From NCBI RefSeq assembly GCF_056712565.1, contig NZ_CM160072.1: a stretch of DNA of 64,000 nt. One strand, 5' to 3'. The translations under genes were made by a program, and so were the position numbers. The notes below the pieces were generated by a model that did no database searches, had not been told where the DNA came from, and saw nothing but the letters and a program-made list of their open reading frames with translations. Within the stretch, counting starts at the first letter, position 1. Every line of letters starts with the position of its first letter. Below are positions 2,450-63,957 of the stretch, piece after piece.

Positions 2450-3577
2450 ATGTCGTGCCCGGTTATTGAGCTGACACAACAGCTTATTCGCCGCCCTTCC
2501 CTGAGTCCTGATGACGCAGGATGCCAGGCTTTGTTGATTGAACGTTTGCAGGCGATCGGTTTTACCGTTGAACGCATGGACTTTGCCGATACGCAGAATT
2601 TTTGGGCATGGCGTGGGCAGGGTGAAACGTTAGCCTTTGCCGGGCATACCGACGTGGTGCCGCCTGGCGACGCCGACCGTTGGATCAATCCGCCGTTTGA
2701 ACCAACCATTCGTGACGGCATGTTATTCGGGCGCGGTGCGGCAGATATGAAAGGCTCGCTGGCGGCGATGGTGGTAGCTGCAGAACGTTTTGTCGCACAA
2801 CATCCCAACCATACGGGGCGACTGGCATTTCTGATCACCTCTGATGAAGAAGCCAGTGCACACAATGGTACGGTAAAAGTCGTCGAAGCGTTAATGGCAC
2901 GTAATGAGCGTCTCGATTACTGCCTGGTTGGCGAACCGTCGAGTATCGAAGTGGTAGGTGATGTGGTGAAAAATGGTCGTCGCGGATCGTTAACCTGCAA
3001 CCTTACCATTCATGGCGTTCAGGGGCATGTTGCCTACCCACATCTGGCTGACAATCCGGTACATCGCGCAGCACCTTTCATTAATGAATTAGTGGCTATT
3101 GAGTGGGATCAGGGTAATGAATTCTTCCCGGCGACCAGTATGCAGATTGCCAATATTCAGGCGGGAACGGGCAGTAACAACGTTATTCCAGGTGAACTGT
3201 TTGTGCAGTTTAACTTCCGCTTTAGCACCGAACTGACGGATGAGATGATCAAAGCGCAGGTGCTTGCCCTGCTTGAAAAACATCAACTGCGCTATACGGT
3301 GGATTGGTGGCTTTCCGGGCAGCCATTTTTGACCGCGCGCGGTAAACTGGTGGATGCGGTCGTTAACGCGGTTGAGCACTATAATGAAATTAAACCGCAG
3401 CTACTGACCACAGGCGGAACGTCCGACGGGCGCTTTATTGCCCGCATGGGGGCGCAGGTGGTGGAACTCGGGCCGGTCAATGCCACGATTCATAAAATTA
3501 ATGAATGTGTGAACGCTGCCGACCTGCAGCTACTTGCCCGTATGTATCAACGTATCATGGAACAGCTCGTCGCCTGA
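2450..3577 (+). CDS. dapE: Succinyl-diaminopimelate desuccinylase
   Basis: 375-aa ORF, M20 peptidase family motifs, synteny. Confidence 0.95.
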
Positions 3578-3604
3578 TGAGTGGTTCTGCAAGAGGAAAT
3601 AAGC

Positions 3605-3805
3605 ATGGACTGGCTGGCTAAATATTGGTGGATTCTGGTGATTGTCTTTTTGGTAGGCGTCCTGCTGAACGTGATTAAAGATCTCAAGCGCGTCGACCAT
3701 AAGAAATTTCTCGCCAACAAGCCGGAGCTTCCCCCGCATCGTGATTTCAACGATAAGTGGGACGATGACGACGACTGGCCGAAAAAGGATCAACCGAAGA
3801 AGTAA
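3605..3805 (+). CDS. ypfN: Small membrane protein YpfN (66 aa)
   Basis: ATG 3605 with RBS AGAGGA; TM helix then acidic tail; ORF track start 3581 is an upstream extension. Confidence 0.75.
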
Positions 3806-3813
3806 GCTAAGTG

Positions 3814-3872
3814 GCCGGATAAGGCGTTAACGCCCCGGCCATGATGCCTGATACAGTCTTATCAGGCCTACC
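3814..3872. repeat. REP (repetitive extragenic palindrome) elements
   Basis: GCCGGATAAGGCG... and GCCTGATA...TATCAGGCCTAC palindromic units between ypfN and ypfH. Confidence 0.5.
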
Positions 3873-3881
3873 CGGCTATTA

Positions 3882-4580
3882 TTACATCATTTCAATCACA
3901 TCATCATCGCCAGGCTTACCGCCACTTAGCGCTTCGTCGAAATAATGTTTCGGAATGGTATAACGCAAGTGATCCAGGGCTAATTGCATACTGCGATTGT
4001 CGATCGCATGGCCTAAATCCTCCACGATATCCAGCGTCACATCGCCACCGGCACTGATTAACGCTTCCTGCGCCGCAACCGCATGCGCCAGATCGATAAC
4101 CGGATCTTCACCGCCATGAATCAAGTGAATTGTTGTGGCTGTAGACGCGGTTTCCGGCAGGCTCGCGTAGCGTCCGTTGAAGGCAATGACGCGCGAAGCA
4201 AGGCCCGGTTCGGCTTTAATGCTCTCCAGCGCCATAATCGCGCCTTGTGAGAAACCGATTAGCGCCGTGGCATTAGCCCCTACTCCGCTTTGTTTCTGCC
4301 AGTAGCGCACCGTCTCAATAAACGTCGGCATGATGGCATTCACACGCGCCTGGCGATTATCTTCCGTAATACCCTGCACCGAAAACCACTGACGCCCCGC
4401 CGGATTACCGCTCGGCTCCGCGCCACCGACACTCACCACCAGCGCATCAGGAAACAGCGGCGCAAACCAGCTACCTATTTCCCCCATTGCCACCGGGTTA
4501 TCCCCGACACCGTGGAAAAGCAGTAACAACTGTTGTGCTGGTTTATCCGGGCTTTGAACAACAAAATGGTCATGTTTCAT
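3882..4580 (-). CDS. ypfH: Esterase YpfH (alpha/beta hydrolase)
   Basis: Start at ATG 4580 (MKHDHF...) with RBS AAGGAG 6 nt upstream; ORF track start 4604 is an extension. Confidence 0.85.
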   Translation of the reverse strand: MKHDHFVVQSPDKPAQQLLLLFHGVGDNPVAMGEIGSWFAPLFPDALVVSVGGAEPSGNPAGRQWFSVQGITEDNRQARVNAIMPTFIETVRYWQKQSGVGANATALIGFSQGAIMALESIKAEPGLASRVIAFNGRYASLPETASTATTIHLIHGGEDPVIDLAHAVAAQEALISAGGDVTLDIVEDLGHAIDNRSMQLALDHLRYTIPKHYFDEALSGGKPGDDDVIEMM

Positions 4581-4653
4581 GGCGAACTCCTTAACTGATG
4601 TCATTAATTTTACGCCGCTGACTCACAATGACCATGGGAGAAAATTGAAGGAG

Positions 4654-6669
4654 TCAGTGAAAAAATTGCCATTGCGTTATGCGATCGCGCAGACGCTCAG
4701 TGCGAACATCATCAAGTGCGAATAGCGCCTGCGCGGCCTCTTCCCGCTGGCGAACCAGTAACAGCTTACGGCCTGAAAGTTTAAGTGTGGTACATAACTG
4801 CGCGTCACTGGCGTTTTTCTGTAAACGCCCACGCAGCGCCGGTAATGCCAGTTCGCTGGTTTGTAGCAAACGCAATAAGCAACCTAACGATGTTAATAGC
4901 GGACGATGAGTGAAAGCAAAACCGGCCAGTTCAAGCCAGTCGTCGTCAGAAAGGACGGCATCGTTTAGTGGATCAACAGGAAGCATTTCGCCATTCCACT
5001 GCGCGAGAGCTTGCGCATCGCGACGTAAACGGTAATGCTCACGTTCAGCCAGTTGTTTACCCGCATCACTCATCGGTAACAGCGCCATCGCCGTATAGCA
5101 ACCGCTGCTGGCTTCACGATGATTACCCATTCGCACCAGCACAAAACCGCAGCGTTGCCAGAAACGCCATAACTCCTCGGTGTAACCAAAACTCACCGAA
5201 AGATAGTCGAGGTCATGAATATATTGCAAAGCACCAGCAATCAGTTGCTGACCTGTGCCTTCCCGCTGACGAGCCGGATGAACTGCTATTCGGCTGACCC
5301 GCCTTCCGCGCAATGTCGCCGCCAGTGGATTGCTGCCGTGCGCCGCCAGCGACTGGGCCACCAGATTACCCCGCGGGCGACGAAAACCTGCCCATACCGC
5401 CTGACTGAGTTCTTGAGATAATCCGCCCTCATCCACCAGCCACAGCGCCCCGGCAATCTCGTTTTCGCCAGCCGCCTGTAAAAAATGTTGACCTGGTGCA
5501 TCCATCATGCGGCGTAAATCCAGCGGCGAAGTCCGGTAGTGCGCACCAGACAATAATTGATAAACCTTTAACGGCGTTTCTGGCTCGCTTCGCCATAACG
5601 TCTGTTCAAATGCGGAAATAACGATATTGCCTTGTGGTGTATGGGTGAAGTTTTCATCGTCAAACACCAGTGCCTCACTAACCATTTTTTCCAGCGGGCA
5701 TCCCTGCGCCCAACGGATCGGCTGTTGTAGTTCAAAACGGTGTAAATGCGGAAAGCGAGCGCAAAATTTCAGCAAAAAACCACGTCCGGTGCCTTCGTAG
5801 CCCTGCACCGTAGTGGTTAACAACGTTCGAGGAAAACGCGATACCAGTTGATACAACAACGGCGCAGGTATAGCTGCGGCTTCATCGACCACCAGCCAGT
5901 CGGCTTGCTCATCGCTGGCTAACAAGGCATCCGGTGCAATAAAGCGAAACTTCTCACCCGCAAATTGTGCCAGTACATCCGTTGCCGCTTTTGCGGGCGC
6001 GGTGACAATCGCACTGCCCGCAATACGAGAAATGAGTTGCCCTGCCAACGCCGACTTACCGCGCCCACGCGCAGCAGTTACCGCTGCCACGCCCGGCGGC
6101 ATGGTCAGTAGCTGCTGTAAGAGTTGCTGTTGTTCTGGTTGTGGTGCGCCGGTAGCGGGGTGCCAGTCAGTACGGGGAGTAAAATGCGCCAACGAGAACG
6201 GCTGGTTTTGCCGCCAGAGGATAGCGTCGTTATTCGCCGTAAGTACGCGTTTGAAATGCTGGACAAAATGCGGCGTCGCAATAGGGTCAGGGCAATCACT
6301 CCAGCGCAGCGAGTCGGCATCAGGTTGGTTTTCCCACTCATCCCATACAGGGAGTAACAACACCAGCCAGCTTCCCGCTTTCAACGTTCCGCTAAGTGCC
6401 GCAAAGGCAGCGGCATCAAAGCCTTGGCGGGCGTCGAATACCGCATGCCGGAACTCGCGCCCAAGTAAAGTTTGTAGTGCCGAGGGAGAACAGTGGTTTT
6501 CAGCATCTGGCTGCGGCGAAATCCACAGCCAGTCGCCAGGTAAGGCATCACGCAACTTAAGCGCATGATCAAAACACCAACGCTCTTCCCCGCTCAACAC
6601 CAGCAAGCGGCGGATCCCTTCACGTTTCATTTGCGCTGTTAATGTGTGAAGCGCAGTCAGTTCAGCCAT
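4654..6669 (-). CDS. tmcA: tRNA(Met) cytidine acetyltransferase TmcA
   Basis: 671-aa ORF, helicase-like ATPase plus GNAT domain, synteny. Confidence 0.9.
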   Translation of the reverse strand: MAELTALHTLTAQMKREGIRRLLVLSGEERWCFDHALKLRDALPGDWLWISPQPDAENHCSPSALQTLLGREFRHAVFDARQGFDAAAFAALSGTLKAGSWLVLLLPVWDEWENQPDADSLRWSDCPDPIATPHFVQHFKRVLTANNDAILWRQNQPFSLAHFTPRTDWHPATGAPQPEQQQLLQQLLTMPPGVAAVTAARGRGKSALAGQLISRIAGSAIVTAPAKAATDVLAQFAGEKFRFIAPDALLASDEQADWLVVDEAAAIPAPLLYQLVSRFPRTLLTTTVQGYEGTGRGFLLKFCARFPHLHRFELQQPIRWAQGCPLEKMVSEALVFDDENFTHTPQGNIVISAFEQTLWRSEPETPLKVYQLLSGAHYRTSPLDLRRMMDAPGQHFLQAAGENEIAGALWLVDEGGLSQELSQAVWAGFRRPRGNLVAQSLAAHGSNPLAATLRGRRVSRIAVHPARQREGTGQQLIAGALQYIHDLDYLSVSFGYTEELWRFWQRCGFVLVRMGNHREASSGCYTAMALLPMSDAGKQLAEREHYRLRRDAQALAQWNGEMLPVDPLNDAVLSDDDWLELAGFAFTHRPLLTSLGCLLRLLQTSELALPALRGRLQKNASDAQLCTTLKLSGRKLLLVRQREEAAQALFALDDVRTERLRDRITQWQFFH

Positions 6670-6683
6670 CCCTGCCCCGGAAG

Positions 6684-7547
6684 TTAAATGCTTTTACCAA
6701 AAGTATTGCATTGTGCCGGATCGCCGCTGTCGAAACCACGTTTAAACCAGCTGTAGCGTTGCTGAGAAGTGCCATGAGTGAAACTGTCTGGTACTACTCG
6801 CCCCTGACTTTGCTGTTGTAAACGGTCATCGCCGATGGCCTGCGCCGCGTTTAGCGCCTCTTCCAGATCGCCGGTTTCCAGAACACCTTGCTGCTGCATA
6901 CTATGCCCCCAGACACCGGCAAAACAGTCGGCCTGGAGTTCCATACGCACAGATAAGCGGTTTACTTCCGCCTGCGTCGCGTTTTGTTGCAGTTGACGAA
7001 CTTTCGGCTCGATGCCTAACAGTTTCTGCACATGATGACCGACTTCATGAGCGATAACGTACCCCTGGGCAAAATCGCCATCCGCGCCAAGTTTGTCTTT
7101 CATGTCATCATAGAAGGAGAGATCGATATAAACTGTGCCATCCGCCGGGCAATAGAATGGCCCCATTATGGACTGGCCCGCCCCGCAGCCGGTACGCGTC
7201 ATTCCACGGTACATGACCAGCTTCGGTTGCTGATAGGTTTTACCCATCTTCTCGAATTGCTGTCCCCAGGTGTCTTCCGTGGTTGCCAGAATCACCGAGG
7301 TGAATTTTGCGGCTTCGTCTTCATTAGGGCTAATTGACCGCGTTGATTGCTGTTGGGAAACCGGCTGTCCGGTCATCAACCCGGTTAAATCAACGCCATA
7401 GTAGCCTGCAACCAGCACGACTATCAGTAAAATCAGCCCGCCTTTACCGCTTGGCAGGCGAAAACCGGGACCGCCCATAGACGGACCACCAGAGCTGTTG
7501 CGCCTGTCTTCAACATTGTCACTTTCACGTCGCCCTTGCCAACGCAT
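6684..7547 (-). CDS. ypfJ: Zinc metalloprotease-like protein YpfJ
   Basis: 287-aa ORF with HExxH (HEVGHH) motif, synteny. Confidence 0.85.
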
Positions 7548-25974: not shown

Positions 25975-26325
25975 AGATGCTCAGCAGAATCCCCCACATC
26001 CTGAAGGAGGTGTATTCAGACAGGCATCCCACCTGACTTCGAATGATGATTATTCATCACTATAGAGAGCAATGATTCTAAGTGTCATATGAAAGTTCCA
26101 ATTGATATATATCAAACAAAATAACCCTGATTAATGAATTATTACGTTTATCATGTTAACTCATCATTATTACATCATCATTGTAAATAATTAAATTAAC
26201 TTCCATAACATTAAAATATGTATCCACTGACGCTTTTTTACATAACGAAGAATTGACCATTTTGTCCTGTTGTGCCTTAATGTAAGTACCGTCCACGGCG
26301 TGGGACATACTTCAAGGAACCTTTT

Positions 26326-26517
26326 GTGAGTCAGGCAACCAGTATGCGAAAACGACACCGATTTAACAGTCGCATGACCCGTATCGTACTGCTCATCAGC
26401 TTTATCTTCTTCTTTGGCCGTTTTATCTACTCGTCCGTCGGTGCCTGGCAGCACCATCAGAGCAAAAAAGAAGCTCAGCAATCCACACTCTCCGTCGAAT
26501 CACCGGTACAACGTTAG
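26326..26517 (+). CDS. yfgG: Small membrane protein YfgG
   Basis: 63 aa with one TM helix, synteny. Confidence 0.7.
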   Translation: MSQATSMRKRHRFNSRMTRIVLLISFIFFFGRFIYSSVGAWQHHQSKKEAQQSTLSVESPVQR

Positions 26518-26827
26518 CGGTTACCTTCTCCACTCTCACAGAACATAACGGCACCTCGCTGTCGGATGCTTTTGCTCTTTGAGATTATCAAAGCGGCAGA
26601 TATTCTTTCATCTTAAATTTTACGTCTTTGTTCTGACTGAAGTTCATCCTGTTCGGCTGCGAAATAAATACATCATTAATACATATGTTGTGATGATGTA
26701 TTTTTATAAATTATTTCCAGCATGAATTTTAATAAATTTAATCTATTCCTTTATACGCAATACATTTACTTTCCTCTTTTGATGATCTTAAATGTCTCAT
26801 TTTTCGTAATGTGTATAACAAGGAATA

Positions 26828-27346
26828 GTGATGAAATTTAAAAAATGTCTTCTGCCTGTGGCAATGTTAGCGTCATTCACTCTGGCAGGATGCCAGTCAA
26901 ATGCTGATGATCATGCCGCCGATGTTTATCAAACCGATCAACTGAATACCAAACAAGAAACTAAAACCGTTAATATTATTTCCATTCTTCCCGCAAAAGT
27001 TGCCGTAGACAACGCCCAAAATAAACGGAACGCACAAGCCTTCGGCGCGCTTATTGGCGCTGTCGCTGGCGGTGTTATCGGCCACAACGTCGGGTCTGGC
27101 AGCAATTCCGGAACGACGGCAGGTGCAGTTGGCGGCGGAGCTGTAGGCGCGGCAGCGGGTTCTATGGTGAATGATAAAACCTTAGTGGAAGGTGTTTCTT
27201 TAACATATAAGGAAGGCACCAAAGTGTATACCTCCACCCAGGTGGGTAAAGAGTGCCAGTTTACGACAGGTTTAGCCGTTGTTATTACCACGACGTATAA
27301 CGAAACGCGTATTCAGCCAAATACCAAATGTCCTGAAAAGAGCTAA
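26828..27346 (+). CDS. yfgH: Outer membrane lipoprotein YfgH (glycine-zipper)
   Basis: Lipobox LAGC; Gly-rich GxxxG repeats. Confidence 0.85.
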   Translation: MMKFKKCLLPVAMLASFTLAGCQSNADDHAADVYQTDQLNTKQETKTVNIISILPAKVAVDNAQNKRNAQAFGALIGAVAGGVIGHNVGSGSNSGTTAGAVGGGAVGAAAGSMVNDKTLVEGVSLTYKEGTKVYTSTQVGKECQFTTGLAVVITTTYNETRIQPNTKCPEKS

Positions 27347-27361
27347 TAATCAGGAGGAGTC

Positions 27362-27901
27362 ATGAAGAAAGTTTTTCTTTGCGCCATCTTAGCCTCCTTA
27401 AGCTATCCGGCTATCGCCTCATCATTGCAGGATCAACTCTCGGCTGTCGCAGAAGCGGAACAGCAAGGTAAAAATGAAGAGCAAAGGCAGCATGACGAAT
27501 GGGTCGCGGAGCGCAACAGGGAAATCCAGCAAGAGAAGCAACGTCGCGCAAACGCCCAGGCCGCGGCTAATAAAAGAGCGGCAACGGCAGCAGCGAATAA
27601 GAAAGCTCGTCAGGATAAACTGGACGCCGAAGCCACTGCGGACAAAAAACGCGATCAAAGTTATGAAGATGAGCTACGTAGCTTAGAGATTCAGAAACAA
27701 AAACTGGCGCTGGCGAAAGAAGAAGCCCGCGTCAAGCGCGAAAACGAATTTATCGATCAGGAACTGAAGCACAAAGCTGCGCAAACCGATGTGGTGCAAT
27801 CTGAAGCTGACGCAAACAGAAATATGACTGAAGGCGGTCGCGATCTGATGAAAAGCGTGGGTAAAGCAGAAGAGAATAAATCAGATAGCTGGTTTAACTA
27901 A
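27362..27901 (+). CDS. yfgI: Secreted coiled-coil protein YfgI
   Basis: 179 aa, signal peptide, charged coiled-coil. Confidence 0.85.
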   Translation: MKKVFLCAILASLSYPAIASSLQDQLSAVAEAEQQGKNEEQRQHDEWVAERNREIQQEKQRRANAQAAANKRAATAAANKKARQDKLDAEATADKKRDQSYEDELRSLEIQKQKLALAKEEARVKRENEFIDQELKHKAAQTDVVQSEADANRNMTEGGRDLMKSVGKAEENKSDSWFN

Positions 27902-27946
27902 ACGATGTTAGTAACTTCAAACCTATAATTCTTTAGGATAAAAAAA

Positions 27947-27973
27947 CCCTCTGTAGTAACAGAGGGTTTTGTT
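27947..27973. terminator. Bidirectional rho-independent terminator (yfgI / original guaA)
   Basis: A-run, CCCTCTG-tagtaa-CAGAGGG, TTTTGTT. Confidence 0.6.
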
Positions 27974-27994
27974 CATTCATAGTGCAGGGTCAAA

Positions 27995-28009
27995 TCATTC
28001 CCACTCAAT
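27995..28009 (-). other. Displaced guaA 3' end (codons IEWE-stop) = prophage attachment core at junction
   Basis: TCATTCCCACTCAAT reverse-translates to ...I-E-W-E-stop then diverges into phage DNA; 9-bp inverted repeat CACTCAATT/AATTGAGTG at 28002-28038. Confidence 0.55.
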
Positions 28010-28119
28010 TATTTACGATAACCATAACCAATTGAGTGATAACATTTTTCCAAATCTCAATTTTTCCCGTACCGTTTTATATACCGTCACCGGAAATCAG
28101 TACCATGAAAAATGCCATG

Positions 28120-28602
28120 CTATCTGGTCAAAGTGTCGTACTGTTTTTCGCAGACTCTTCCGGCTTCGGCTGCCCGGTCAGCATACTCTGCCAGTTGTCT
28201 GTTTCTCTCGAGAGATTTGCTGAGCACGTCGGCAAGCAAAACTCCGGTGTCTGCGGCTGACGACCCAGCGCCGACAATGGCGTTATACTGCCTGAGCTGC
28301 TCACGGATGGCAAAGAGTTGTTGCTGCAACCGGCCAGCGCTAGCGGCAGCATCAAGAGCATCATTGCGCGCCTGGTCGATCCTCTGCTGAGCTTCACGTT
28401 CATTGGTCACTTTCTCCTGTTCGTAGTACTGACGAACTTTGTCTTCTTCGGCTTTGCGGTCTTCTTCCGCCTGAGCATACCCGGCATCGTACTGGCGACT
28501 GCCGTGTATATTCCAGGCAACCACTCCTGATATGACCAGAACAGCAAGCACTGCCACGATAAGCAACTGTTTCCAGTATGCTTTCACGAATGCCTTGATC
28601 AT
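28120..28602 (-). CDS. Rz-like i-spanin
   Basis: N-terminal TM anchor then charged coiled-coil; last gene of lysis cassette. Confidence 0.6.
   Translation of the reverse strand: MIKAFVKAYWKQLLIVAVLAVLVISGVVAWNIHGSRQYDAGYAQAEEDRKAEEDKVRQYYEQEKVTNEREAQQRIDQARNDALDAAASAGRLQQQLFAIREQLRQYNAIVGAGSSAADTGVLLADVLSKSLERNRQLAEYADRAAEAGRVCEKQYDTLTR
28128..28364 (-). CDS. Rz1-like o-spanin lipoprotein, embedded in Rz in the +1 frame
   Basis: MMLLMLPLALAGCS lipobox; fully nested within Rz. Confidence 0.5.
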   Translation of the reverse strand: MMLLMLPLALAGCSNNSLPSVSSSGSITPLSALGRQPQTPEFCLPTCSANLSRETDNWQSMLTGQPKPEESAKNSTTL

Positions 28603-28823
28603 ATACTTACCTTCGGCTGAAATCGGCGAACGTTAATTGGCTCACCATATGGCCATGACCAATTCAGCCAGGTAAATGTTTTCAGCTCGCACATCGCATC
28701 GAAAAATTCACCAGGATCGATGTCGGAATAGCTGCAAACTATTTCCAGACCACGTTCTGTTTCTTGCAAAGCAACTGTATCTGTTTCCCAGCGGGGAATG
28801 AGCAAAGAAAATAGTTTATTCAT
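28599..28823 (-). CDS. Hypothetical 74-aa protein, translationally coupled to endolysin
   Basis: ATG 28823 overlaps endolysin stop; RBS AGAAGG; no TM. Confidence 0.4.
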
Positions 28824-29446
28824 AAAAGCACCTTCTTGGCCGAAAGATACCGTACACGCCGGTCGTCGATACCGTTTCTGCCACCATTGATAATCAGAGT
28901 TACACGTGCAATATCGCCGGTATACTTCATGCATCCTTTGCTGGCGAAGAACCACGCCGCGCTACGAGCCGCATATTCGTCCTGCGCCAGCAGTTCAGGG
29001 CTCTCCAGCAGGTCAACCTTCAGACCGTTTCCGCAATCACGATAGTTATTCAAACCGGTAATCTGGATAAGTCCGCGCCCTCGGTAATTCCAGCCATCAC
29101 CAGGGGCATTGTTCCCCATGCGTTTGCTGTATACCAGATTTGCGATCGCGCGCTGGCGCTCAAGTGGCAATGGTGGTTCACCAGCACGGCGCCCCAGTGC
29201 ATTAGCCTGCCCCTGAGTGAGACGCCCAGCCCGAACGAAGTTAGCCAGTCCGCTGACACTGTAGTTGAAATTCTCCTGCAACCTGGTGAAGCCCCCAGAC
29301 TCATGCCCGACTTGAGCAATAAACATTGCCTGATCTTCTGCTTTGCTGATACCAAACTCTTTCATCGCAGAAGTTATATGCGAGAACCAGCGTGCGGCCA
29401 GTGCCTCGCTGATACCAGCAGCTCGCTGGAATTGTTTAATCTCCAT
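28820..29446 (-). CDS. Endolysin, glycoside hydrolase family 19-like
   Basis: [12 protein letters not shown]...[12 protein letters not shown] chitinase-class motifs; start ATG 29446 with RBS GAGGT; track extension to 29611 rejected. Confidence 0.75.
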
Positions 29447-29744
29447 GTTTAGACCTCGATACTTTAAAAATTTGAACGACGTTACCGCGCGTTTTAATAA
29501 CCGCAGCCAGCATGACAGCGTTGATAATGACCTCAGATAAATCCACAGCCATTGGCGTACGTAACCAGATTGCATAGGCGACTCGAACAGGAATACTGGC
29601 CGCAGCAACAATCAGGAAATAAGCAAGCCATCCTCCCCACCTTCGATGTTGAGAGCCGTTACGCCGGAATGTGACAACGCGAATTGCTATGCCAGTGCAA
29701 ATAACTGCATTGGTGATAAGCAAAAAAAACTCATGCGTTACCAT
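29436..29744 (-). CDS. Lysis-cassette membrane protein (holin or antiholin candidate)
   Basis: 102 aa, about 3 TM segments, overlaps endolysin start. Confidence 0.5.
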
Positions 29745-30135
29745 CGTCTTTTCTCCCCGGAATTAACTCGCGTGGATTATCGGAACGGTGATAGAGCCAT
29801 ATACCAATACGCACAGCGACAATTGCTGACACGAATGCGCCTGCAGAGAAAACAATCCCTTTTTCAAAAGAGTCCTGCGTGATGGTAGGGATCAGGCTGG
29901 CTATGCCGATAAGAATTGATGCTGCTGGTTTGTAAAAGAGAAGGCCACAAAGAAAGCTGAGCATCGAAAGGAGCACCCGGCGACGGATGGGGTACTCTAC
30001 TGCAGAGGTAACAAAAATTACCGCCCCAGCCAAAGCCCCTAAAGCAACCTCCGGAGGGACACCTGCAATAACCGCAGCAAGAGAACTAAAACTAAGCAAC
30101 TGATTTAATTGCTCACTTGTTACTTGAGCAGACAT
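29731..30135 (-). CDS. Holin-like membrane protein
   Basis: 134 aa, about 4 TM segments, charged C-terminus, first gene of lysis cassette. Confidence 0.5.
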   Translation of the reverse strand: MSAQVTSEQLNQLLSFSSLAAVIAGVPPEVALGALAGAVIFVTSAVEYPIRRRVLLSMLSFLCGLLFYKPAASILIGIASLIPTITQDSFEKGIVFSAGAFVSAIVAVRIGIWLYHRSDNPRELIPGRKDDGNA

Positions 30136-30416
30136 ACTTTCTCCTGTTTACTATCTATAAGCCAGTCAATTATTGATGACTAACTTCGCATAGTAAACCA
30201 TATATGAATCATTATTGTTCCATATCATATATCTCAATAAAAGTACTAATGATTTTACAGAACGAGCCAGCAGAGTGAGGGCAGTTGTACAGGAACCATA
30301 GACTTAATTTTGTATTTAATAATGCTATGGTGTAATAAACCTGAACATGTATTTAAAATACGTACTGATTCATGATAGAATTCAAAGATAACTTTTCACA
30401 AACTCCGTTTTTGATA

Positions 30417-30445
30417 CCCGCAAAATATTGCGGGCTTTTTTTTAA
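30417..30445 (+). terminator. Plus-strand rho-independent terminator abutting tailspike stop
   Basis: CCCGCAAAATATTGCGGG followed by CTTTTTTTTT. Confidence 0.4.
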
Positions 30446-33400
30446 CGTTCTTCCAGAGACTGAATCCGCTCTTTTATCTTATCCATTTCTCTGCGCTGCC
30501 ATGCTGCCTCGATATAGAATAAGAGATCAGGTCTGACCCCCCATCTAGATCCTGCTGGCGTTATTTCAACGCGCTCAATGATGTCTTCTATTACCATCAC
30601 TGGATTATCATCCTCATCAACAATGATGCTCCCGTCATTATCAGTCAGCGGCATTTCCCTTTGGCCAGTAATGACGTCATCATATACTGCGGGATAATCG
30701 TCATAGCAAAGAAAGGCATAGCGGCATGTTGTGCTTTCTTCTTCCATGAGTCCGTGAGAAATAAGAACATCACGAAGTTGCTGCGCGATTACACCATGAT
30801 GTATCCTCGCCCCTTCTTCCCCCTTTATAGCGACAGCGTTCAGCCATTTATAAGCGATATACCTGACGTCACCCCAGGCATCCAGCAATGCTTCGTCAGG
30901 AGAGACCGGCTCTGTCTTTAATGTTCCGTCACTGGTAACCACAGGATTGGAGCCAAGATAAACTGTCGAGAACCTGTTTCCCGGACCACCAAGAGCATTT
31001 ACATTATCAAGATAAGGTTTAACATCTCCGTTCTCAAAAAGATGTTCGAGTGCGTTATATACCGCGCGACGTGGAGTACTGCTTCCGGAACCATGCAACG
31101 TTATCATTGCACCATCTGCTGAAGACGTTGTTTCACCTCCGCTAACGATTAATCTCTGAGCGGTAACATCATCAGACGGTACTTTCTTCGCAATAATGGC
31201 GTAATTACCCTCAAGTTTGACTTCCGCGCGAACTTGTCCTGATGTACCTGCATGGACAGTCAGTGACTGGACGGCAACATCATCTGTGAAATCAACGGGT
31301 ACAGGAACCGTCCTCACGCCTGACGTCGACATAAAAGTAGGAAGCGTTCTGTTAGGAGTGGCTCCGTAGACAAAATCCCTTGAAACAAATTCTTCCTGTT
31401 TAATTTTCACCCTGAAACAATACAAATCAGCCGGGTGACCATCGTGAACATAAGGATATTTTCTGTTGTTATCCCCTATGCTCCATGGGTTTAGAAAGTC
31501 TTCCCCACCGAAAATGTAGTACAGCCAGTTGTCTTTGATACAAACTGAACCAACACCAACCGCAGAGTTAACTATTCCGCCCTGATAAATCTGATCAGTA
31601 ACATTAACCCACTCTACATTATCCAGACTCCACTCATTGACGTTAACTCTGGTCATAAATGTTCTTGGATAATTTCCTGCATAACGGTTATCAGGTTCTC
31701 CTCCTTCCCACTCACCAAATGCGCGCTCACTGCCAAAAATAATCAGCTCATCGCCAACTTTGGCAAAAGGAAGGTTTGAGTGATGAACATTATTTGGGAA
31801 GCGAAGAGAATTCCATGATGTACCTAAATCAGAGCTTCTGTGCAATGAACTACCGGGTTGAGTACTTAATGTCCCCCTGGTCGTCAGATACAGAATGCCA
31901 TCATAATATTTTACACATGGCTCAGATGCATTCGCCTCATATTCTGCAGGTATGCGTCTGCGAACAAAGCTACCAGGAGAACCGAAAGCATCAGAGAAAT
32001 AGAGTATCCCAAGCTCGCGTGGACCAATATCACCATTATGGTAGCCAACAGCAAAACTGTTATCGCTAATCGTCGCAAAACTGTGAATCTCAGTAACAGG
32101 AGTGCTTCCGTCAACAAAAGAAGGAATAGTTCCAAGACTGGTTTTTCTCCATGGTGACGAGTGAAATGATGTACCAAAACTCCAGTATCTACCCTCGTTA
32201 TTCTGATCCACATCCTGAGTATTTTGCGTCGTAACTGTAAAAGTATTTTTATCAATAACAGTAGTCACCGTCATATTCCCGGTAACACCTGTAACACCAG
32301 AGTTTGAGAAGTTGACAAAATCACCAGCAAATAATCCGTGATCAGTAATGCGAATATAAGCGACTTGCTGATTTGCTGCTTTCGTTATACCACCATAAAC
32401 GCGAAGGCTGCGACTCATTGGGCGATCCCACAACTCTGCAACCTGCAGTTTATTTCCTCTCACGGTCCGCGTCTCAATTACAGCAAAAAGGCGATTTCTG
32501 ACAACCCCCATACTCATGCAGTGATAGTTAACTGTGGGATAGTTTTCATGTAAATCTGTAAGCCATTCCGGCGTTGTCCAGGTCTTCCCGTCATCTCCTG
32601 AGCGAACCCATGCAACATGGAGGTTATTTACACCATGGCGGTCTCCAGCCATAAAAGGCGCATAGATGACATTGTCATATACAAACGTTTTATCCTGCGT
32701 CCAGGCGTTGTACCACGGTGTATCTGTAATTTTAAATAACTCTCCCTGGATAAAATCTTCAGAAGCATAAAAAAGAGGCTGGCCCGGTATTCTCTCAAAT
32801 AAAAAACGAGCATTTTTAAATCGACTGACATCCGGAAGAGTTGATACTTTAAAAGTAAGCCCTAATCCGTCAATTTTATAACCTGGAGATGAGGCTTCAA
32901 GGCACGCGCTTATTGCAGTGGAATCGTCATTTATACCATCACCAACAGCTCCAAAATCTTTGGGGCTAATAGCATCACGCATTTTATCCTGGAACGTTCG
33001 GTACACAGCCCCAGAACCATACTGAATAAACCAACCAAAACCACCAACAACCCCGGCGATTGCAGCATCGACATAATTACGCATTGAGCGATTATTTACA
33101 GCGTCCTGCTCAAATGATGGATCTGCAAGGTTAGAAATTTTGTTTTGCTTTGCATCGTAATATTTTGCAAGCAAAGATGGTTTCATCAATGCACGTCTGA
33201 ACCACCCAAAACATTGCTGGATCAGCATCGTCAGGTAGTCAAAGGCATCTTCATGCACTTCGGGGAAAAATTTTCCCTGATTGCGAAGGTCTGTCTCCTG
33301 CACTACATCAAGCACACGATCTATCGTAATTCGCCATCCAGTAGCAAGCGGAGACGGAAGAACCACAGAACCGCCACTATAAGTGCCCGCCCCAGTTACC

Positions 33401-33561
33401 GTATAACCGGTATCCAGGACCAATTCTGTTACGTTCCCGTTCAGGTCAGACACCTGAACAACCAGGTCTGATTTTCTGAAAATTCGAAAAGTATACGGAA
33501 ACGATGTCGTAACGCCGTTACCGGTGTATTCGTTGTGGTCAACTTCGGTTGAGACCGTCAT
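30442..33561 (-). CDS. Tailspike protein with Asp-box (BNR) beta-propeller-type central domain
   Basis: 1039 aa; conserved phage tail-fibre N-terminal domain; two SxDxGxTW motifs (SGDDGKTW, SSDLGTSW); RBS GGAG. Confidence 0.8.
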   Translation of the reverse strand: MTVSTEVDHNEYTGNGVTTSFPYTFRIFRKSDLVVQVSDLNGNVTELVLDTGYTVTGAGTYSGGSVVLPSPLATGWRITIDRVLDVVQETDLRNQGKFFPEVHEDAFDYLTMLIQQCFGWFRRALMKPSLLAKYYDAKQNKISNLADPSFEQDAVNNRSMRNYVDAAIAGVVGGFGWFIQYGSGAVYRTFQDKMRDAISPKDFGAVGDGINDDSTAISACLEASSPGYKIDGLGLTFKVSTLPDVSRFKNARFLFERIPGQPLFYASEDFIQGELFKITDTPWYNAWTQDKTFVYDNVIYAPFMAGDRHGVNNLHVAWVRSGDDGKTWTTPEWLTDLHENYPTVNYHCMSMGVVRNRLFAVIETRTVRGNKLQVAELWDRPMSRSLRVYGGITKAANQQVAYIRITDHGLFAGDFVNFSNSGVTGVTGNMTVTTVIDKNTFTVTTQNTQDVDQNNEGRYWSFGTSFHSSPWRKTSLGTIPSFVDGSTPVTEIHSFATISDNSFAVGYHNGDIGPRELGILYFSDAFGSPGSFVRRRIPAEYEANASEPCVKYYDGILYLTTRGTLSTQPGSSLHRSSDLGTSWNSLRFPNNVHHSNLPFAKVGDELIIFGSERAFGEWEGGEPDNRYAGNYPRTFMTRVNVNEWSLDNVEWVNVTDQIYQGGIVNSAVGVGSVCIKDNWLYYIFGGEDFLNPWSIGDNNRKYPYVHDGHPADLYCFRVKIKQEEFVSRDFVYGATPNRTLPTFMSTSGVRTVPVPVDFTDDVAVQSLTVHAGTSGQVRAEVKLEGNYAIIAKKVPSDDVTAQRLIVSGGETTSSADGAMITLHGSGSSTPRRAVYNALEHLFENGDVKPYLDNVNALGGPGNRFSTVYLGSNPVVTSDGTLKTEPVSPDEALLDAWGDVRYIAYKWLNAVAIKGEEGARIHHGVIAQQLRDVLISHGLMEEESTTCRYAFLCYDDYPAVYDDVITGQREMPLTDNDGSIIVDEDDNPVMVIEDIIERVEITPAGSRWGVRPDLLFYIEAAWQRREMDKIKERIQSLEER

Positions 33562-33665
33562 GTTAAATCTCCAGATAGTCGCAGCACCCGTTGCGCCGCA
33601 TATCTGGTTATTCTATTACCTGAAAAACCACATATGGATAAAAGGACTATAAATACCAATAGATA

Positions 33666-33680
33666 TTACCTTTCGGGTAA
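33666..33680. promoter_or_regulatory. Operator-like palindrome TTACC-N5-GGTAA
   Basis: TTACCTTTCGGGTAA; member of a family of 10 perfect sites in the prophage. Confidence 0.45.
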
Positions 33681-33717
33681 TTTGCAAAACGTGCTGGATA
33701 GCAAACAAATTATTTGT

Positions 33718-33737
33718 TACTGTATAAACATACAGTT
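33718..33737. promoter_or_regulatory. LexA (SOS) box
   Basis: TACTGTATAAACATACAGTT = CTGT-N8-ACAG with TA-rich spacer, 20 bp upstream of ATG 33757. Confidence 0.6.
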
Positions 33738-33756
33738 ATTGCATGGAGAAGATAAG

Positions 33757-34014
33757 ATGCAGCAGTATCACTATCCACTGGAAGACGGATTTACCGAAAG
33801 GATTCACACGCCGGGAGGCGTCAGATCACTGGTGGAGGGATCGCTCTTGATGAAATTACTCCGGGATCTCGATAAGGATGGATTTAATGTCGATGGCCCA
33901 CTTGCCGAACTGACTGCACTGATTAACTACGTCACCAGCTCACAGATGTCTATGCGGGATCTGCAAACACATCTCGACTATTGTGCCGAACAATTACGAA
34001 AACAAACCAGATAA
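33757..34014 (+). CDS. Small antirepressor-like protein (85 aa), paralog of the Ant C-terminal domain
   Basis: MQQYHYPLEDGF...; aligns with C-terminus of the BRO-N protein; RBS GGAGAAG; track start 33634 is an extension. Confidence 0.55.
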   Translation: MQQYHYPLEDGFTERIHTPGGVRSLVEGSLLMKLLRDLDKDGFNVDGPLAELTALINYVTSSQMSMRDLQTHLDYCAEQLRKQTR

Positions 34015-52816: not shown

Positions 52817-52893
52817 GTGGCATTAGCTCAGTTGGACAGAGCAACCGCCTTCTAAGCGGTTGGTCGCAGGTTCGAATCCTGCATGCCACGCCA
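52817..52893 (+). tRNA. Phage-encoded tRNA-Arg, anticodon UCU
   Basis: Cloverleaf by hand: acceptor GTGGCAT/ATGCCAC, D-arm GCTC/GAGC, anticodon stem ACCGC/GCGGT, loop CTTCTAA, T-arm GCAGG-TTCGAAT-CCTGC, CCA end. Confidence 0.85.
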
Positions 52894-61019: not shown

Positions 61020-61604
61020 ATGAAAAGTATCCAGGACGTCCGCAGGCAAAATCTCAACGACTTGATCGACCGTGAATTCAATGGTGTTCAGACGCGGATG
61101 GCAGAAAAACTTGGAACTCAGGCAAATCTGGTAAACCGCTGGGCTCTTGGCAAGAAGGTTATCGGCGACCAGGTTGCGCGAAAAATTGAAGCTGCCGCCA
61201 ATAAACCCCGTAACTGGCTTGATATCGATCGCTCGCTTTCTCAGGAAGGTTTTCAGCCTGTCGGCCCAAGCGACATTGGTCAGCTGGCGGCTCACAACCT
61301 GGAACGCTGGATGAGCGAAAGCCGCGACCTTTCAACACAGGGAAAACTTCACCGCGCATCCGGCGTCGCCCAGGTGACAATCAGCCGCCTGTTAAACAAT
61401 GAGGTCAGCGTTTCCATTTCCACCCTGGAGAATGTTGCATCCGCATTCGGGCGTCACGGCTATGAATTACTGATTCACCCGCACGACCCTGCGACTATCA
61501 ACTATGACCGCTCGCGCTACGCATTGTTACCCGAAACAGAGAAGGCAAAGATCGAAAGTTACATTGAATTTGTCATCAGCCAGAACGAAAAAAACAAACA
61601 ATAA
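61020..61604 (+). CDS. CI-like repressor, HTH type, no recognisable LexA-type autocleavage domain
   Basis: 194 aa, two HTH-like segments, no Ala-Gly/Ser-Lys S24 motifs; followed by terminator. Confidence 0.65.
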   Translation: MKSIQDVRRQNLNDLIDREFNGVQTRMAEKLGTQANLVNRWALGKKVIGDQVARKIEAAANKPRNWLDIDRSLSQEGFQPVGPSDIGQLAAHNLERWMSESRDLSTQGKLHRASGVAQVTISRLLNNEVSVSISTLENVASAFGRHGYELLIHPHDPATINYDRSRYALLPETEKAKIESYIEFVISQNEKNKQ

Positions 61605-61625
61605 AATCATATTTTTCAGTAAGTA

Positions 61626-61648
61626 AGCCGCCTCATGGCGGCTTTTTT
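61626..61648 (+). terminator. Rho-independent terminator after cI-like gene
   Basis: AGCCGCC-tcatg-GCGGCT then TTTTTT. Confidence 0.6.
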
Positions 61649-61661
61649 ATTGCCAGCAAGA

Positions 61662-61738
61662 TTACCTTATGGGTAATTTTTTTAACTCATATCTATTGAC
61701 ATCAAACCAGATACGCATAATCATTACCTCAACGGTAA
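61662..61738 (+). promoter_or_regulatory. pL-like promoter flanked by two operator palindromes
   Basis: TTACCTTATGGGTAA (61662-61676), TTGACA 61696-61701, ATAATC -10-like, TTACCTCAACGGTAA (61724-61738). Confidence 0.5.
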
Positions 61739-61757: not shown

Positions 61758-61910
61758 ATGCAGTGGAAAATCATCAACGGTTGGTACTGCGTTACTGCAT
61801 GCGGATTCATGAGCTGGAAGTTCCGCACCTTACAGGAAGGCATTAAGTGGGCTTTCGTCAGCAAAGAAGCTCGCGATGTGGCCAACGATAACGAGATATG
61901 GGAGGGCTGA
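61758..61910 (+). CDS. Small hypothetical protein (50 aa), first gene of leftward-type early operon
   Basis: ATG 61758 with RBS GAGGT; absent from ORF track (below 60 aa). Confidence 0.35.
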   Translation: MQWKIINGWYCVTACGFMSWKFRTLQEGIKWAFVSKEARDVANDNEIWEG

Positions 61911-61912
61911 TA

Positions 61913-62212
61913 ATGAACGTTAATCAGCAGAAAAATCTTCAAAAAATCATGCAGGCATTCGACAAGGACTACCACCTGTCAGAACAGCTATATGACCGAC
62001 AAGTTGAACTGATTGAGAGCATCCGACTTCATCAACTGTCATCAACTTTCGACGTTGTAACAGGCAAAGGCGTTCGTCAGGAAGTACTGGAGGCTGCTAA
62101 AGACAGCCCTGAGTTCGAAGAACTGATGGATGCCTATCGGCGAGAGGCAATGGCAATTATCGCCCGCTGGGATCTGGCGGATCAGCTTGATGGACAGAAG
62201 GACGCGGCATGA
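61913..62212 (+). CDS. Hypothetical protein (99 aa)
   Basis: ATG 61913 with RBS GGAGGG; coupled to downstream exonuclease gene. Confidence 0.45.
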   Translation: MNVNQQKNLQKIMQAFDKDYHLSEQLYDRQVELIESIRLHQLSSTFDVVTGKGVRQEVLEAAKDSPEFEELMDAYRREAMAIIARWDLADQLDGQKDAA

Positions 62213-63030
62213 AACCGGGAATTTATTTCGGCATCAGCAACGAAGACTACCACGCAGGTGACGGCGTGAGTAAGTCGCAACTGGACATGGTTGCCAAGAA
62301 TCCGGCGCTTCTTAAATGGGTTCAGGCAGCACCAGAAGACGAAGAGAAAAAGTCTGCATTGGATATGGGAACCGCATTGCACTGCCTGCTTCTGGAACCT
62401 GGAGAATTCGACAAACGCTTCATCGTGTCACCGAAATTCGATCGTCGGACAAAACAAGGTAAAGCTGACGAAGAAGCATTTCTTCGTGATGTGGCGGATA
62501 TGGGTATTACGGTACTTGATGTCGAGCAGTGGCGAAAACTTGAGCTCATGCGTGATAGCGCAATGGCTCATCCGGCGGCACGCTGGATGTTGGAAGCACC
62601 TGGTTACTGCGAAGCATCAATGTACTGGAACGATGAAGAGACGGGTGAGTTGTGCCGAATTCGTCCAGACAAATGGCTGAACGAGCACAACGTGATCGTC
62701 GACGTGAAAAAGGTTGCAGATATGGACCGTTTTGCACGCCACATCGAGGAATTCCGCTACCACGTGCAGGACGCAATGTACCGCGAAGGCGCAACGAGGG
62801 TTACTGGTCAACCGCATGGTTTTTTCTTTCTTGCCGTGAGCGAAAGCATTGATTGTGGTCGGTATCCGGTACGCGTGTTCGAGTTGGATGCGCCGGATGT
62901 CGATGCCGGGCACGCTCTGTTCCGCCGGGATCTGAATACCTATCACGAATGCCGCATCAACGATGAGTGGGGCGGAGTGGAAATTATTAAACGCCCTGAC
63001 TGGGCACGTAAACAGGATATGTACGTATGA
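62209..63030 (+). CDS. PD-(D/E)XK exonuclease (RecE-C-terminal/Exo VIII-like)
   Basis: 273 aa; RPD...IVDVKK nuclease motif; coupled to annealase gene. Confidence 0.6.
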   Translation: MKPGIYFGISNEDYHAGDGVSKSQLDMVAKNPALLKWVQAAPEDEEKKSALDMGTALHCLLLEPGEFDKRFIVSPKFDRRTKQGKADEEAFLRDVADMGITVLDVEQWRKLELMRDSAMAHPAARWMLEAPGYCEASMYWNDEETGELCRIRPDKWLNEHNVIVDVKKVADMDRFARHIEEFRYHVQDAMYREGATRVTGQPHGFFFLAVSESIDCGRYPVRVFELDAPDVDAGHALFRRDLNTYHECRINDEWGGVEIIKRPDWARKQDMYV

Positions 63031-63908
63031 GCAATGATATCGCAATCACATCACAACCAGGCGCAACTGTAGGTACTGCTGCGGCAATCTTCAGCCCGGA
63101 GGGCATGAATCAACTGGTGCGTTTCGCGGAGTTGATGTCACAAAGCAAAGCGACTGTACCGAAACATCTTGAAGGCAAACCTGCCGATTGTCTGGCGGTG
63201 ACCATGCAGGCGGCACAGTGGGGAATGAACCCTTTCGCCGTGGCGCAGAAAACGCATGTGGTAAACGGAACGTTAGGCTACGAAGCACAGTTGGTAAACG
63301 CGGTCGTATCCTCTTCCAGCCTGCTGGCGACACGCCTGAATTATCGCTGGAGCGGTGACTGGTCGAATGTTAACGGCAAAACAGATAAATCACCGAATCT
63401 GACGGTAACTGTGTCAGCAGTTCTTAAAGGAGAAGCAGAACCCCGTGAGCTTACCATCAGTATGGCGCAAGCCGGAGTGCGTAACTCTCCATTGTGGGAA
63501 CAGGATCCGCGCCAGCAGCTTGCCTATCTTTGCACGAAACGATGGGCTCGCCTGCACGCTCCTGATGTGCTTCTCGGTGTTTACACCCCTGACGAATTAC
63601 AGGAAACGGCACCGCGCGTTGAGCGAGACATTACTCCGCAAACAACTACTGCTGCGGGAATGAACAGTCTGATCAACGCTAAACCAGTGAAAAAGCCTGA
63701 TGAGCAAACTCGTAAAGCGGATAGCCGTGATCCAGAAGAAATGCTGATGGCCTTTACCAGCGCAGCGATGAATTACAGCACTGTCTCCGAACTGGATAAG
63801 GCTTACAAATACATTGCACAAAAACTTTCAGATGATGACGAACTGCTGGCAAAAGCCACCGACGTTTACAGCGTTCGTCGGGAAGAATTAAACGAAACAT
63901 CTATGTAA
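63027..63908 (+). CDS. Red-beta/Bet-family single-strand annealing protein
   Basis: QWGMNPF and ERDITPQ segments resemble recalled lambda Bet (GLNPW, ERDITPV). Confidence 0.6.
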   Translation: MSNDIAITSQPGATVGTAAAIFSPEGMNQLVRFAELMSQSKATVPKHLEGKPADCLAVTMQAAQWGMNPFAVAQKTHVVNGTLGYEAQLVNAVVSSSSLLATRLNYRWSGDWSNVNGKTDKSPNLTVTVSAVLKGEAEPRELTISMAQAGVRNSPLWEQDPRQQLAYLCTKRWARLHAPDVLLGVYTPDELQETAPRVERDITPQTTTAAGMNSLINAKPVKKPDEQTRKADSRDPEEMLMAFTSAAMNYSTVSELDKAYKYIAQKLSDDDELLAKATDVYSVRREELNETSM

Positions 63909-63957
63909 CCACCACCGCGGCGCCACACGCGCCGCACTGCAACCAAGAGAGGTATTT

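Follow-up and report, generated by a model that had tools for sequence, protein, structure and literature searches.

The 64,000-nucleotide stretch of contig NZ_CM160072.1 (RefSeq assembly GCF_056712565.1) analysed here, hereafter called the window, carries two adjoining open reading frames (ORFs) on its plus strand, at 62209–63030 (273 aa) and 63027–63908 (293 aa), both present in the ORF list of the window. We interpret these as the nuclease and the annealase of an exonuclease–annealase (SynExo/EATR) recombination operon of a temperate podovirus of the phiV10/TL-2011b type (Uetakevirus-like), lying beside guaA in Escherichia coli and forming an early-left operon downstream of a CI-like repressor; the probability of this reading is roughly 0.8. 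What is shown directly comprises the assignments by homology and by fold, an intact active site, coupled translation, conserved synteny and a wide distribution in viable phages. On the plus strand, a small 99-aa gene is followed by the nuclease gene and then by the annealase gene. The latter two share an ATGA (63027–63030, gtATGAgc), which gives a 4-bp overlap, and the end of the 99-aa ORF, whose start is placed at 61913 in RefSeq, overlaps the nuclease start by the same 4-bp ATGA (gcATGAaa).

The 273-aa protein (62209–63030, plus strand) was identified by profile, Protein Data Bank (PDB) and alignment matches. It matched the Pfam family DUF3799 (PF12684) at residues 21–254 (78.1 bits, cutoff 26; E 1.1e-21), a model that Rac RecE also matches at residues 615–850. 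It further matched phrog_412, 'exonuclease VIII' (1.6e-125), and the RecE nuclease domain 3H4R in the PDB (1.6e-77). The protein aligned with Rac RecE 595–862 without gaps at 49% identity, and in this alignment D154, D165 and K167 correspond to D748, D759 and K761 of RecE. A catalytic role of these three RecE residues was reportedly described by Zhang et al. in 2009. The alignment also pairs H58 with RecE His-652, a residue that sets RecE and RecB apart from lambda Exo (PMC11611040). Residues H58, E135, D154, D165, K167, Q187 and Y191 were kept in 75–76 of 76 non-identical orthologs. One ortholog carries N in place of the catalytic K167 and may be an inactivated copy.

Against the full-length RecE equivalog NF007259, the protein scored 309.4 bits (cutoff 1269) with only profile positions 606–873 matched; it fails this full-length exonuclease VIII model because the ~590-aa N-terminal region of RecE is absent. 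The Pfam scan gave no PF06630 (Exonuc_VIII) match in the protein. The nuclease domain of RecE alone replaces full-length RecE genetically (PMC11611040). No YqaJ (PF09588) match was detected in the same scan, a model that lambda Exo itself matches at 2.7e-30, and BLASTP against lambda Exo showed no similarity (E=0.62). Judged by these comparisons, the 273-aa protein is a RecE-C-terminal-type PD-(D/E)XK nuclease, a predicted 5′–3′ exonuclease, consisting of the nuclease domain only, and by homology with RecE (49% identity to 3H4R) it is probably a ring-shaped oligomer.

The 293-aa protein (63027–63908, plus strand; PF03837) is placed among the single-strand annealing proteins by profile and fold comparison. 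It matched the Pfam RecT family PF03837 with 110.3 bits against a cutoff of 24 (E 1.2e-31, residues 35–197) and phrog_561, 'RecT-like ssDNA annealing protein' (1.7e-145), and its RefSeq/PGAP name is 'RecT family recombinase'. The Pfam label is uninformative here because PF03837 is matched by lambda Bet as well as by Rac RecT. The annealase matched neither the Bet model TIGR01913 (IPR010183), even at E ≤ 1, nor the RecT models TIGR00616 and NF007351 (IPR004590) at the same threshold. As controls, lambda Bet scored 169.5 bits on TIGR01913 (cutoff 76.95) and Rac RecT 23.5 bits, below the cutoff; Rac RecT scored 415.7 and 464.5 bits on TIGR00616 and NF007351, and lambda Bet had no match to either at E ≤ 0.001. 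The PHROGs are separate as well, with phrog_561 for the annealase, phrog_252 for Bet and phrog_148 for RecT. By these models the annealase belongs to neither the Bet nor the RecT family in the strict sense.

Searches of PDB chains by sequence, with the single sequence and with a 143-member profile, returned nothing significant, and the subfamily was therefore assigned by hhalign and fold comparison. The 143-sequence family profile aligned with Bet at E=3.7e-4 over 139 columns (Bet 35–199) and with Rac RecT at E=0.48 over 22 columns. In BLASTP, Bet gave E=0.001 with 32% identity over 71 aa, the ERDITP motif included, and Rac RecT gave E=0.52. An AlphaFold2 (AF2) model of the annealase, with a mean predicted local distance difference test (pLDDT) score of 89.8, was compared with solved structures using Foldseek. 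Redβ (7UJL_A) was the sole high-probability match (probability 1.00, E=1.8e-3), and LiRecT was not among the top 50 matches. The annealase core is thus predicted to have a Redβ-type fold, nearer to Redβ than to RecT, and we place the protein in a lineage of its own within the RecT/Redβ superfamily, a third one that stands nearer to Redβ. A search of 50%-clustered representatives, from which family size and diversity were taken, put the family at 6,939 representative clusters for a threshold of E ≤ 0.001 and at 773 for E ≤ 1e-30.

A preliminary description, made from the letters of the window, had proposed a RecE-C-terminal-like nuclease, unlike lambda Exo, placed ahead of a Bet-family annealase in an order opposite to that of lambda. 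The nuclease assignment is borne out by DUF3799, 3H4R and the 49% identity to Rac RecE, its distance from lambda Exo by the BLASTP and PF09588 results, and the order, nuclease then annealase, is indeed the reverse of bet then exo. Homology searches place the 273-aa protein in nuclease families and the 293-aa protein in annealase families, and chance cannot explain these matches. Membership of the Bet family has to be given up in view of the TIGR01913 result, on which lambda Bet itself reaches 169.5 bits.

The GenBank record of phage TL-2011b (JQ011317.1, AEW24552.1; locus L095, 1430–2311) labels the annealase gene 'enterohemolysin 1'. A '33-kDa Ehly1-associated protein' was reportedly described by Stroeher et al. 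in 1993, and the calculated mass of the annealase is 32.1 kDa. A review describes Ehly1 and Ehly2 as DNA sequences carried by temperate phages in E. coli O26 strains negative for Stx (PMC6784236). Given the label, the O26 phage origin and the size of ~33 kDa, the historical 'enterohemolysin' (Ehly1) is therefore probably this phage annealase under a misnomer.

The AF2 model divides the annealase into three parts. A core domain with a predicted DNA-annealing fold (residues 17–182; 63075–63572, plus strand) is followed by a low-confidence linker of variable length (residues ~196–235; 63612–63731, plus strand; pLDDT 51–72) and by a predicted three-helix C-terminal domain (CTD; residues 236–292; 63732–63902, plus strand), whose helices at 236–247, 253–266 and 271–292 have pLDDT values of 86–98. 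Across the family, annealase tails range from 99 to 184 aa in length, and recombination breakpoints recur in the linker. The CTD of Redβ is a three-helix bundle of ~67 residues that binds lambda Exo and SSB, the binding protein for single-stranded DNA (PMC6393309), and LiRecT has just 26 C-terminal residues past its resolved core, described as unresolved (PMC11611040). According to the model, core, flexible linker and three-helix CTD together reproduce the Redβ layout. The PDB profile search and the fold comparison gave no specific sequence or structural match of the CTD to the Redβ CTD. By analogy with that domain, the annealase CTD is a candidate adaptor for the nuclease and SSB.

The C-terminal region of the family profile (~247–324) also gave weak, non-significant matches (E 0.2–0.9) to the phage 'Gp77' chain 9Y6U and to the C-terminal domain of T4 UvsW, 2JPN. 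The helical segments of 9Y6U and 2JPN have the pattern L-eel-l-aI--a-t-eeL--l in common, and a similar pattern occurs in both tail classes of the annealase family; conceivably this is a small helical motif in widespread use as an adaptor.

The small gene upstream of the nuclease (61913–62212, plus strand) encodes an acidic protein of 99 aa with a predicted helical hairpin and GamS-like fold, which belongs to phrog_856 and is called hypothetical in RefSeq. Of 84 loci, 66 have this gene, and in 57 its end shares 4 bp with the start of the nuclease gene. The 99-aa protein had no PDB match by sequence. An AF2 model built with 18 orthologs as input (pLDDT 88.8) showed a long helical hairpin, and in a Foldseek comparison with 350,542 PDB chains the six best matches were all lambda GamS (5MBV, 2UUZ, 2UV1), with probabilities of 0.92–1.00, template modelling (TM) scores of 0.55–0.79 and 18–22% identity; the seventh match had a probability of 0.10. 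The two proteins are alike in length (99 aa vs 98 aa for GamS) and isoelectric point (4.7 vs 4.99). Residues 49–85 aligned with Gam 91–129 in hhalign (E=0.0049), in a register that agrees with the full-length structural alignment. A BLASTP match to Gam 100–132 was rejected, its register being wrong relative to both the hhalign and the structural alignment, and a semi-global alignment with Gam only repeated the BLASTP register (z=2.7). Homology to RacC was also considered and ruled out, no alignment having been obtained. On the predicted structure we lean, at somewhat better than even odds, towards a Gam-like candidate inhibitor of RecBCD, and phrog_856 may be an unrecognised Gam-like family invisible to sequence models. 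If the 99-aa gene is Gam-like, the unit would therefore read as a gam-like, recE-like, redβ-like operon.

From these assignments we infer the enzymatic activities, the nuclease–CTD contact and the inhibition of RecBCD. The Gam-like protein would shield linear DNA ends from RecBCD, and the RecE-type nuclease would resect the 5′ strand of double-strand ends. The annealase would then be loaded on the 3′ overhang and anneal it to complementary single-stranded DNA, and its three-helix CTD would probably link it to the nuclease, to host SSB or to both, much as the Redβ CTD links Redβ to lambda Exo and SSB.

The E. coli GPEC1337 chromosome (RefSeq) carries the 2-kb module at 100% identity, and the module was detected in 552 of 5,426 complete E. 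coli genomes. It is carried by phages PAS61, ZX5, TL-2011b, phiv142-3 and phiV10 and by O157 typing phages, among which TL-2011b, phiV10, ZX5 and PAS61 are viable and plaque-forming; more distant copies occur in Salmonella, Klebsiella and Enterobacter phages. The phage annotations name RecT or a recombinase together with an exonuclease VIII/RecE-like protein, or a 'putative recET'. Neither PMC12825301, on mammalian RecE/RecT editing, nor PMC9782041, on the ZX5 genome, contains anything on the nuclease–annealase interface or on these genes. A RecE-type nuclease lies directly upstream in all 80 IMG/VR loci whose annealase is 52–100% identical to that of the window. Most of these loci keep the 4-bp overlap, and nuclease identity reaches down to ~64%. 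Kept in 80/80 loci over this whole span of divergence, the pairing is old and stable and not a recent chimera.

The junction itself varies in a few loci. In L047 (IMG/VR, 3182–4942), nuclease and annealase form one fused 586-aa ORF, which fits the single-gene 'putative recET' annotation in phiV10 records; a genuine fusion, a frameshift or an error in sequencing could each account for it. Four loci (L027, L030, L046 and L079) have ~400 bp inserted between the two genes, and in L089 a gene resembling HNH_3 homing endonucleases (1960–2520) lies between a YqaJ nuclease and the annealase. The nuclease–annealase junction may be an insertion hot spot.

At family scale, the neighbourhoods of ten divergent annealase representatives (38–61% identity) were annotated. 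A YqaJ (lambda-Exo-type) nuclease lay upstream in five (L005, L006, L089, L092, L094) and downstream, in the order of lambda, in one (L091); a DUF3799 (RecE-type) nuclease lay upstream in two (L007, L093), and two had no intact nuclease nearby (L090 and L008, the latter with a RecE-like remnant). The nuclease, whatever its type, was thus upstream in 7 of the 8 members with an adjacent one. In L091 (2501–4549), the annealase (P0128), which is 61% identical to the window annealase over residues 15–212, is followed by a 118-aa gene and then by the YqaJ nuclease, so that members of the annealase lineage do not all have the same gene order. In this small sample the lineage partners more often with lambda-Exo-type (YqaJ) nucleases, and the RecE-type partner in the enterobacterial clade of the window is a difference of nuclease type at deep time. 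A survey of Firmicutes phages likewise found annealases of the RecT/Redβ superfamily beside either YqaJ-like or DUF3799 nucleases (PMC8093625).

A second, shallower exchange was observed within the annealase gene. Compared with the window, phiV10-type loci are 96–97% identical in the nuclease and 97–100% in the annealase tail, with the core only ~70% identical. DNA identity falls to 0.55–0.72 only across 63041–63580 and is at least 0.95 on both flanks. The segment at ~63041–63580, which contains the annealing core, is a cassette that phage lineages have exchanged. Over 76 non-identical pairs, nuclease and CTD were correlated with a Mantel rho of 0.77 (partial 0.71), against 0.53 (partial 0.36) for nuclease and core, though the core lies between the other two on the DNA. 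With near-identical loci collapsed and the phiV10 group removed, the values were 0.66–0.71 for nuclease–CTD vs 0.51 for nuclease–core. Core and CTD, although parts of a single protein, were the least coupled pair of regions (AMI, adjusted mutual information, 0.28–0.32). Within the enterobacterial clade, nuclease and CTD tend to travel together while the core is swapped.

Two points of the preliminary description look different in this light. It had read the gene order as a mark of a mosaic: the order is opposite to that of lambda, as it said, but not unusual, being that of Rac recE-recT and of 7/8 divergent members. Its 'mosaic pair' does not survive as a recent mosaic, with the pairing kept in 80/80 loci; a deep change of nuclease type and a shallow exchange of the core are what remain of it.

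The tendency of nuclease and CTD to travel together invites a broader interpretation, in which a Red-like three-gene system, with a cryptic Gam and a Redβ-proximal annealase, was rewired to a RecE-type nuclease and carries a swappable core and a fast-evolving CTD that co-evolves with the nuclease and specifies it. We hold this to be tentative and on balance doubtful. Several observations weigh against parts of the operon reading. Neither the 99-aa protein nor its orthologs matched any Pfam family, Gam (PF06064) included (18 members, E ≤ 1), the Foldseek E-values of the GamS matches were just 0.09–0.6, and it is the fold by itself that carries the Gam assignment. Promoter and terminator consensus matches in the window were no commoner than in shuffled sequence, and the literature searched held no functional data for the annealase lineage. 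As to the coupling, the AMI was 0.72 vs 0.47 at 10% clustering and 0.49 vs 0.50 at 15%, which makes nuclease–CTD coupling dependent on the threshold. All four combinations of two core and two CTD types occur within the closest nuclease clade, one tail class (class B) occurs with both YqaJ and DUF3799 partners at deep scale, and a few neutral double crossovers could lie behind much of the pattern. Because of this threshold dependence, the four combinations, the deep-scale mixing and the neutral crossovers, the idea that the CTD is a nuclease-specific adaptor is suggestive only. The stronger proposal that CTD class dictates nuclease type at deep scale is rejected in view of the class-B tails with both partner types and the threshold-dependent coupling at clade level.

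The operon reading was also weighed against other explanations of the pair. The PGAP, PHROG and Pfam labels ('RecT family recombinase', 'RecT-like ssDNA annealing protein' and 'RecT family') would suit an orthodox RecET module with a RecT ortholog as annealase and nothing Redβ-like in it, as would the Rac recE-recT gene order and the RecE-type partner. However, PF03837 does not discriminate, since it includes lambda Bet; TIGR00616 and NF007351, on which Rac RecT scores 415.7 and 464.5 bits, were not matched; similarity to RecT stayed at E=0.52 in BLASTP and at E=0.48 over 22 columns with the family profile; and the three-helix CTD of ~58 aa is unlike the ~26 unresolved C-terminal residues of LiRecT (PMC11611040). 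We consider this explanation improbable. More unlikely still is that the adjacent genes are not a specific pair, or are decaying remnants, with the nuclease working alone and the annealase with host nucleases. Translational coupling by ATGA is kept in most loci, the catalytic residues are invariant in 75–76 of 76 nucleases, plaque-forming phages carry the module, and the divergence of the nuclease is correlated with that of the annealase CTD. Cognate pairing is, moreover, required for double-stranded DNA recombination (Muyrers et al. 2000, as cited in PMC6393309). Against these stand the two of ten divergent relatives that have no intact nuclease nearby, the ~400-bp insertions between the genes in some loci and the fused 586-aa ORF in phiV10; annealases alone also support single-stranded DNA recombineering (PMC8093625).

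The least credible of the alternatives, with next to no probability in our estimation, is a recent chimera in which bet came from a lambda-like phage and the 3′ part of recE from a Rac-like prophage. Module exchange among temperate phages through Rad52-like recombinases is documented (PMC3945230); the nuclease shares 49% identity with Rac RecE, and the annealase has the ERDITP motif and 32% identity to Bet over 71 aa. Bet is nevertheless far too dissimilar for the descent to be recent (structural identity 13%, no TIGR01913 match). In addition, all 80 loci keep the pairing, mostly with the 4-bp overlap, even where annealase identity falls to 52% and nuclease identity to ~64%, and the annealase family is a large one in its own right, with 6,939 representative clusters.

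The exonuclease–annealase operon shares features with several known systems. Like Rac RecE/RecT, it has a nuclease homologous over its full length to the RecE nuclease domain, with the same PD-(D/E)XK residues and the His-652 equivalent, overlapping genes in the order nuclease then annealase (Rac being transcribed racC, recE, recT) and an expected mechanism of end resection and annealing. It differs from Rac in that the ~590-aa N-terminal region is missing, the annealase is not RecT-type, and the upstream gene is putatively Gam-like and has no similarity to racC. With lambda Red it shares the grouping of three genes in the early-left operon of a temperate phage with a lambdoid layout, an annealase core predicted to be closest to the Redβ N-terminal domain among solved structures, a core, flexible linker and ~60-aa three-helix CTD in the annealase model, and a small acidic 99-aa protein with the predicted fold and the size of GamS. 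Unlike lambda Red, its nuclease is of the RecE type (DUF3799) and not Exo/YqaJ, its order is gam-like, exo, annealase and not gam, bet, exo, and the similarities to Bet and Gam are remote (13–22% identity), with the curated Bet and Gam sequence models failed. The Firmicutes survey, which includes B. subtilis YqaJ/YqaK, also describes one annealase superfamily beside either nuclease type, with the nuclease usually adjacent (PMC8093625). That survey concerns RecT subgroups, whereas here the alternation takes place within one Proteobacteria-centred, Redβ-proximal lineage, and the clade of the window adds exchange below the level of the gene, that of the core cassette. Finally, the predicted three-helix bundle behind a flexible linker, co-varying with the nuclease, resembles the Redβ CTD that contacts lambda Exo and SSB (PDB 6M9K; PMC6393309). 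The partner in the window is of the RecE type (RecE is tetrameric), whereas lambda Exo is a trimer, and here the contact is a predicted one.

The surroundings of the operon have a lambdoid layout, with a repressor, a Cro-like gene, O/P-like replication genes and an integrase. A gene for a CI-like helix-turn-helix (HTH) repressor (61020–61604) adjoins the operon upstream. Two HTH regions were identified in this repressor, one YdaS-like/Cro-C1-like (residues 21–61) and one HTH_3 (106–147), and profile scans found no recognisable S24 peptidase domain, which is unusual for a CI-type repressor. On the opposite strand lie the Cro-like gene and two others, one DnaT/O-like and one a replication gene resembling lambda P. 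A terminator-like hairpin with a T-run (61625–61652, plus strand; 8-bp stem with 6 GC pairs, a consensus match only) lies 3′ of the repressor gene and marks the upstream boundary of the operon. It is followed by a sigma-70 promoter-like site, TTGACA-17-AATCAT (61696–61724, plus strand), which at 10/12 is the top plus-strand match and which, by its position, is a candidate pL-type early-left promoter of the operon. The first gene 3′ of this site is a 50-aa ORF (61758–61910, plus strand; phrog_898), a 'hypothetical protein' in RefSeq. Past the annealase stop codon, a GC-rich hairpin read from the sequence, GCGGCGC-CACAC-GCGCCGC (63916–63934, plus strand), with a perfect 7-bp stem and no T-run, precedes the ribosome binding site and ATG (63959) of an HTH gene that is truncated where the window stops. 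The identical locus of GPEC1337 continues past this point with the HTH gene, PerC, an MT-A70 methylase, DUF1382 and the integrase beside guaA.

The structural genes of the window, including those for the tailspike, the major head protein and the terminase, match the phiV10/TL-2011b-type podovirus. A tRNA-Arg gene (anticodon TCT; 52817–52893) was found inside the prophage, between a gene of the head-tail adaptor/portal region and the terminase gene. GC content is low, at 0.43–0.44, across 26000–34000 (elsewhere ~0.51), a stretch that covers the prophage end and the gene for a 1039-aa tailspike (30442–33561). The low GC would fit a receptor-binding module that is exchanged horizontally.

The module is an ordinary phage exonuclease–annealase module, for which RefSeq and several phage genomes already have annotations. 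Its 'RecT family' label nevertheless hides a large lineage, nearer to Redβ, that fails both sets of curated models, and this is relevant to the mining of annealases for recombineering. Laboratory hybrids of RecE and Redβ do not work, as Muyrers et al. 2000 is cited in PMC6393309, and a 2023 review lists annealase recognition by RecE-type nucleases as unknown (PMC11611040). A Redβ-proximal annealase is here naturally partnered with a RecE-type nuclease, and the natural core-swap chimeras offer constructs for the question of CTD specificity. Should a Red-like system indeed have been rewired in this way, these chimeras would be a ready-made domain swap bearing on recognition between RecE-type nucleases and annealases. 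The conserved 'hypothetical' phrog_856 gene probably encodes a Gam analogue that has gone unrecognised, and in that case the operon would provide a complete, compact (~2 kb) and E. coli-native Gam-Exo-annealase cassette.

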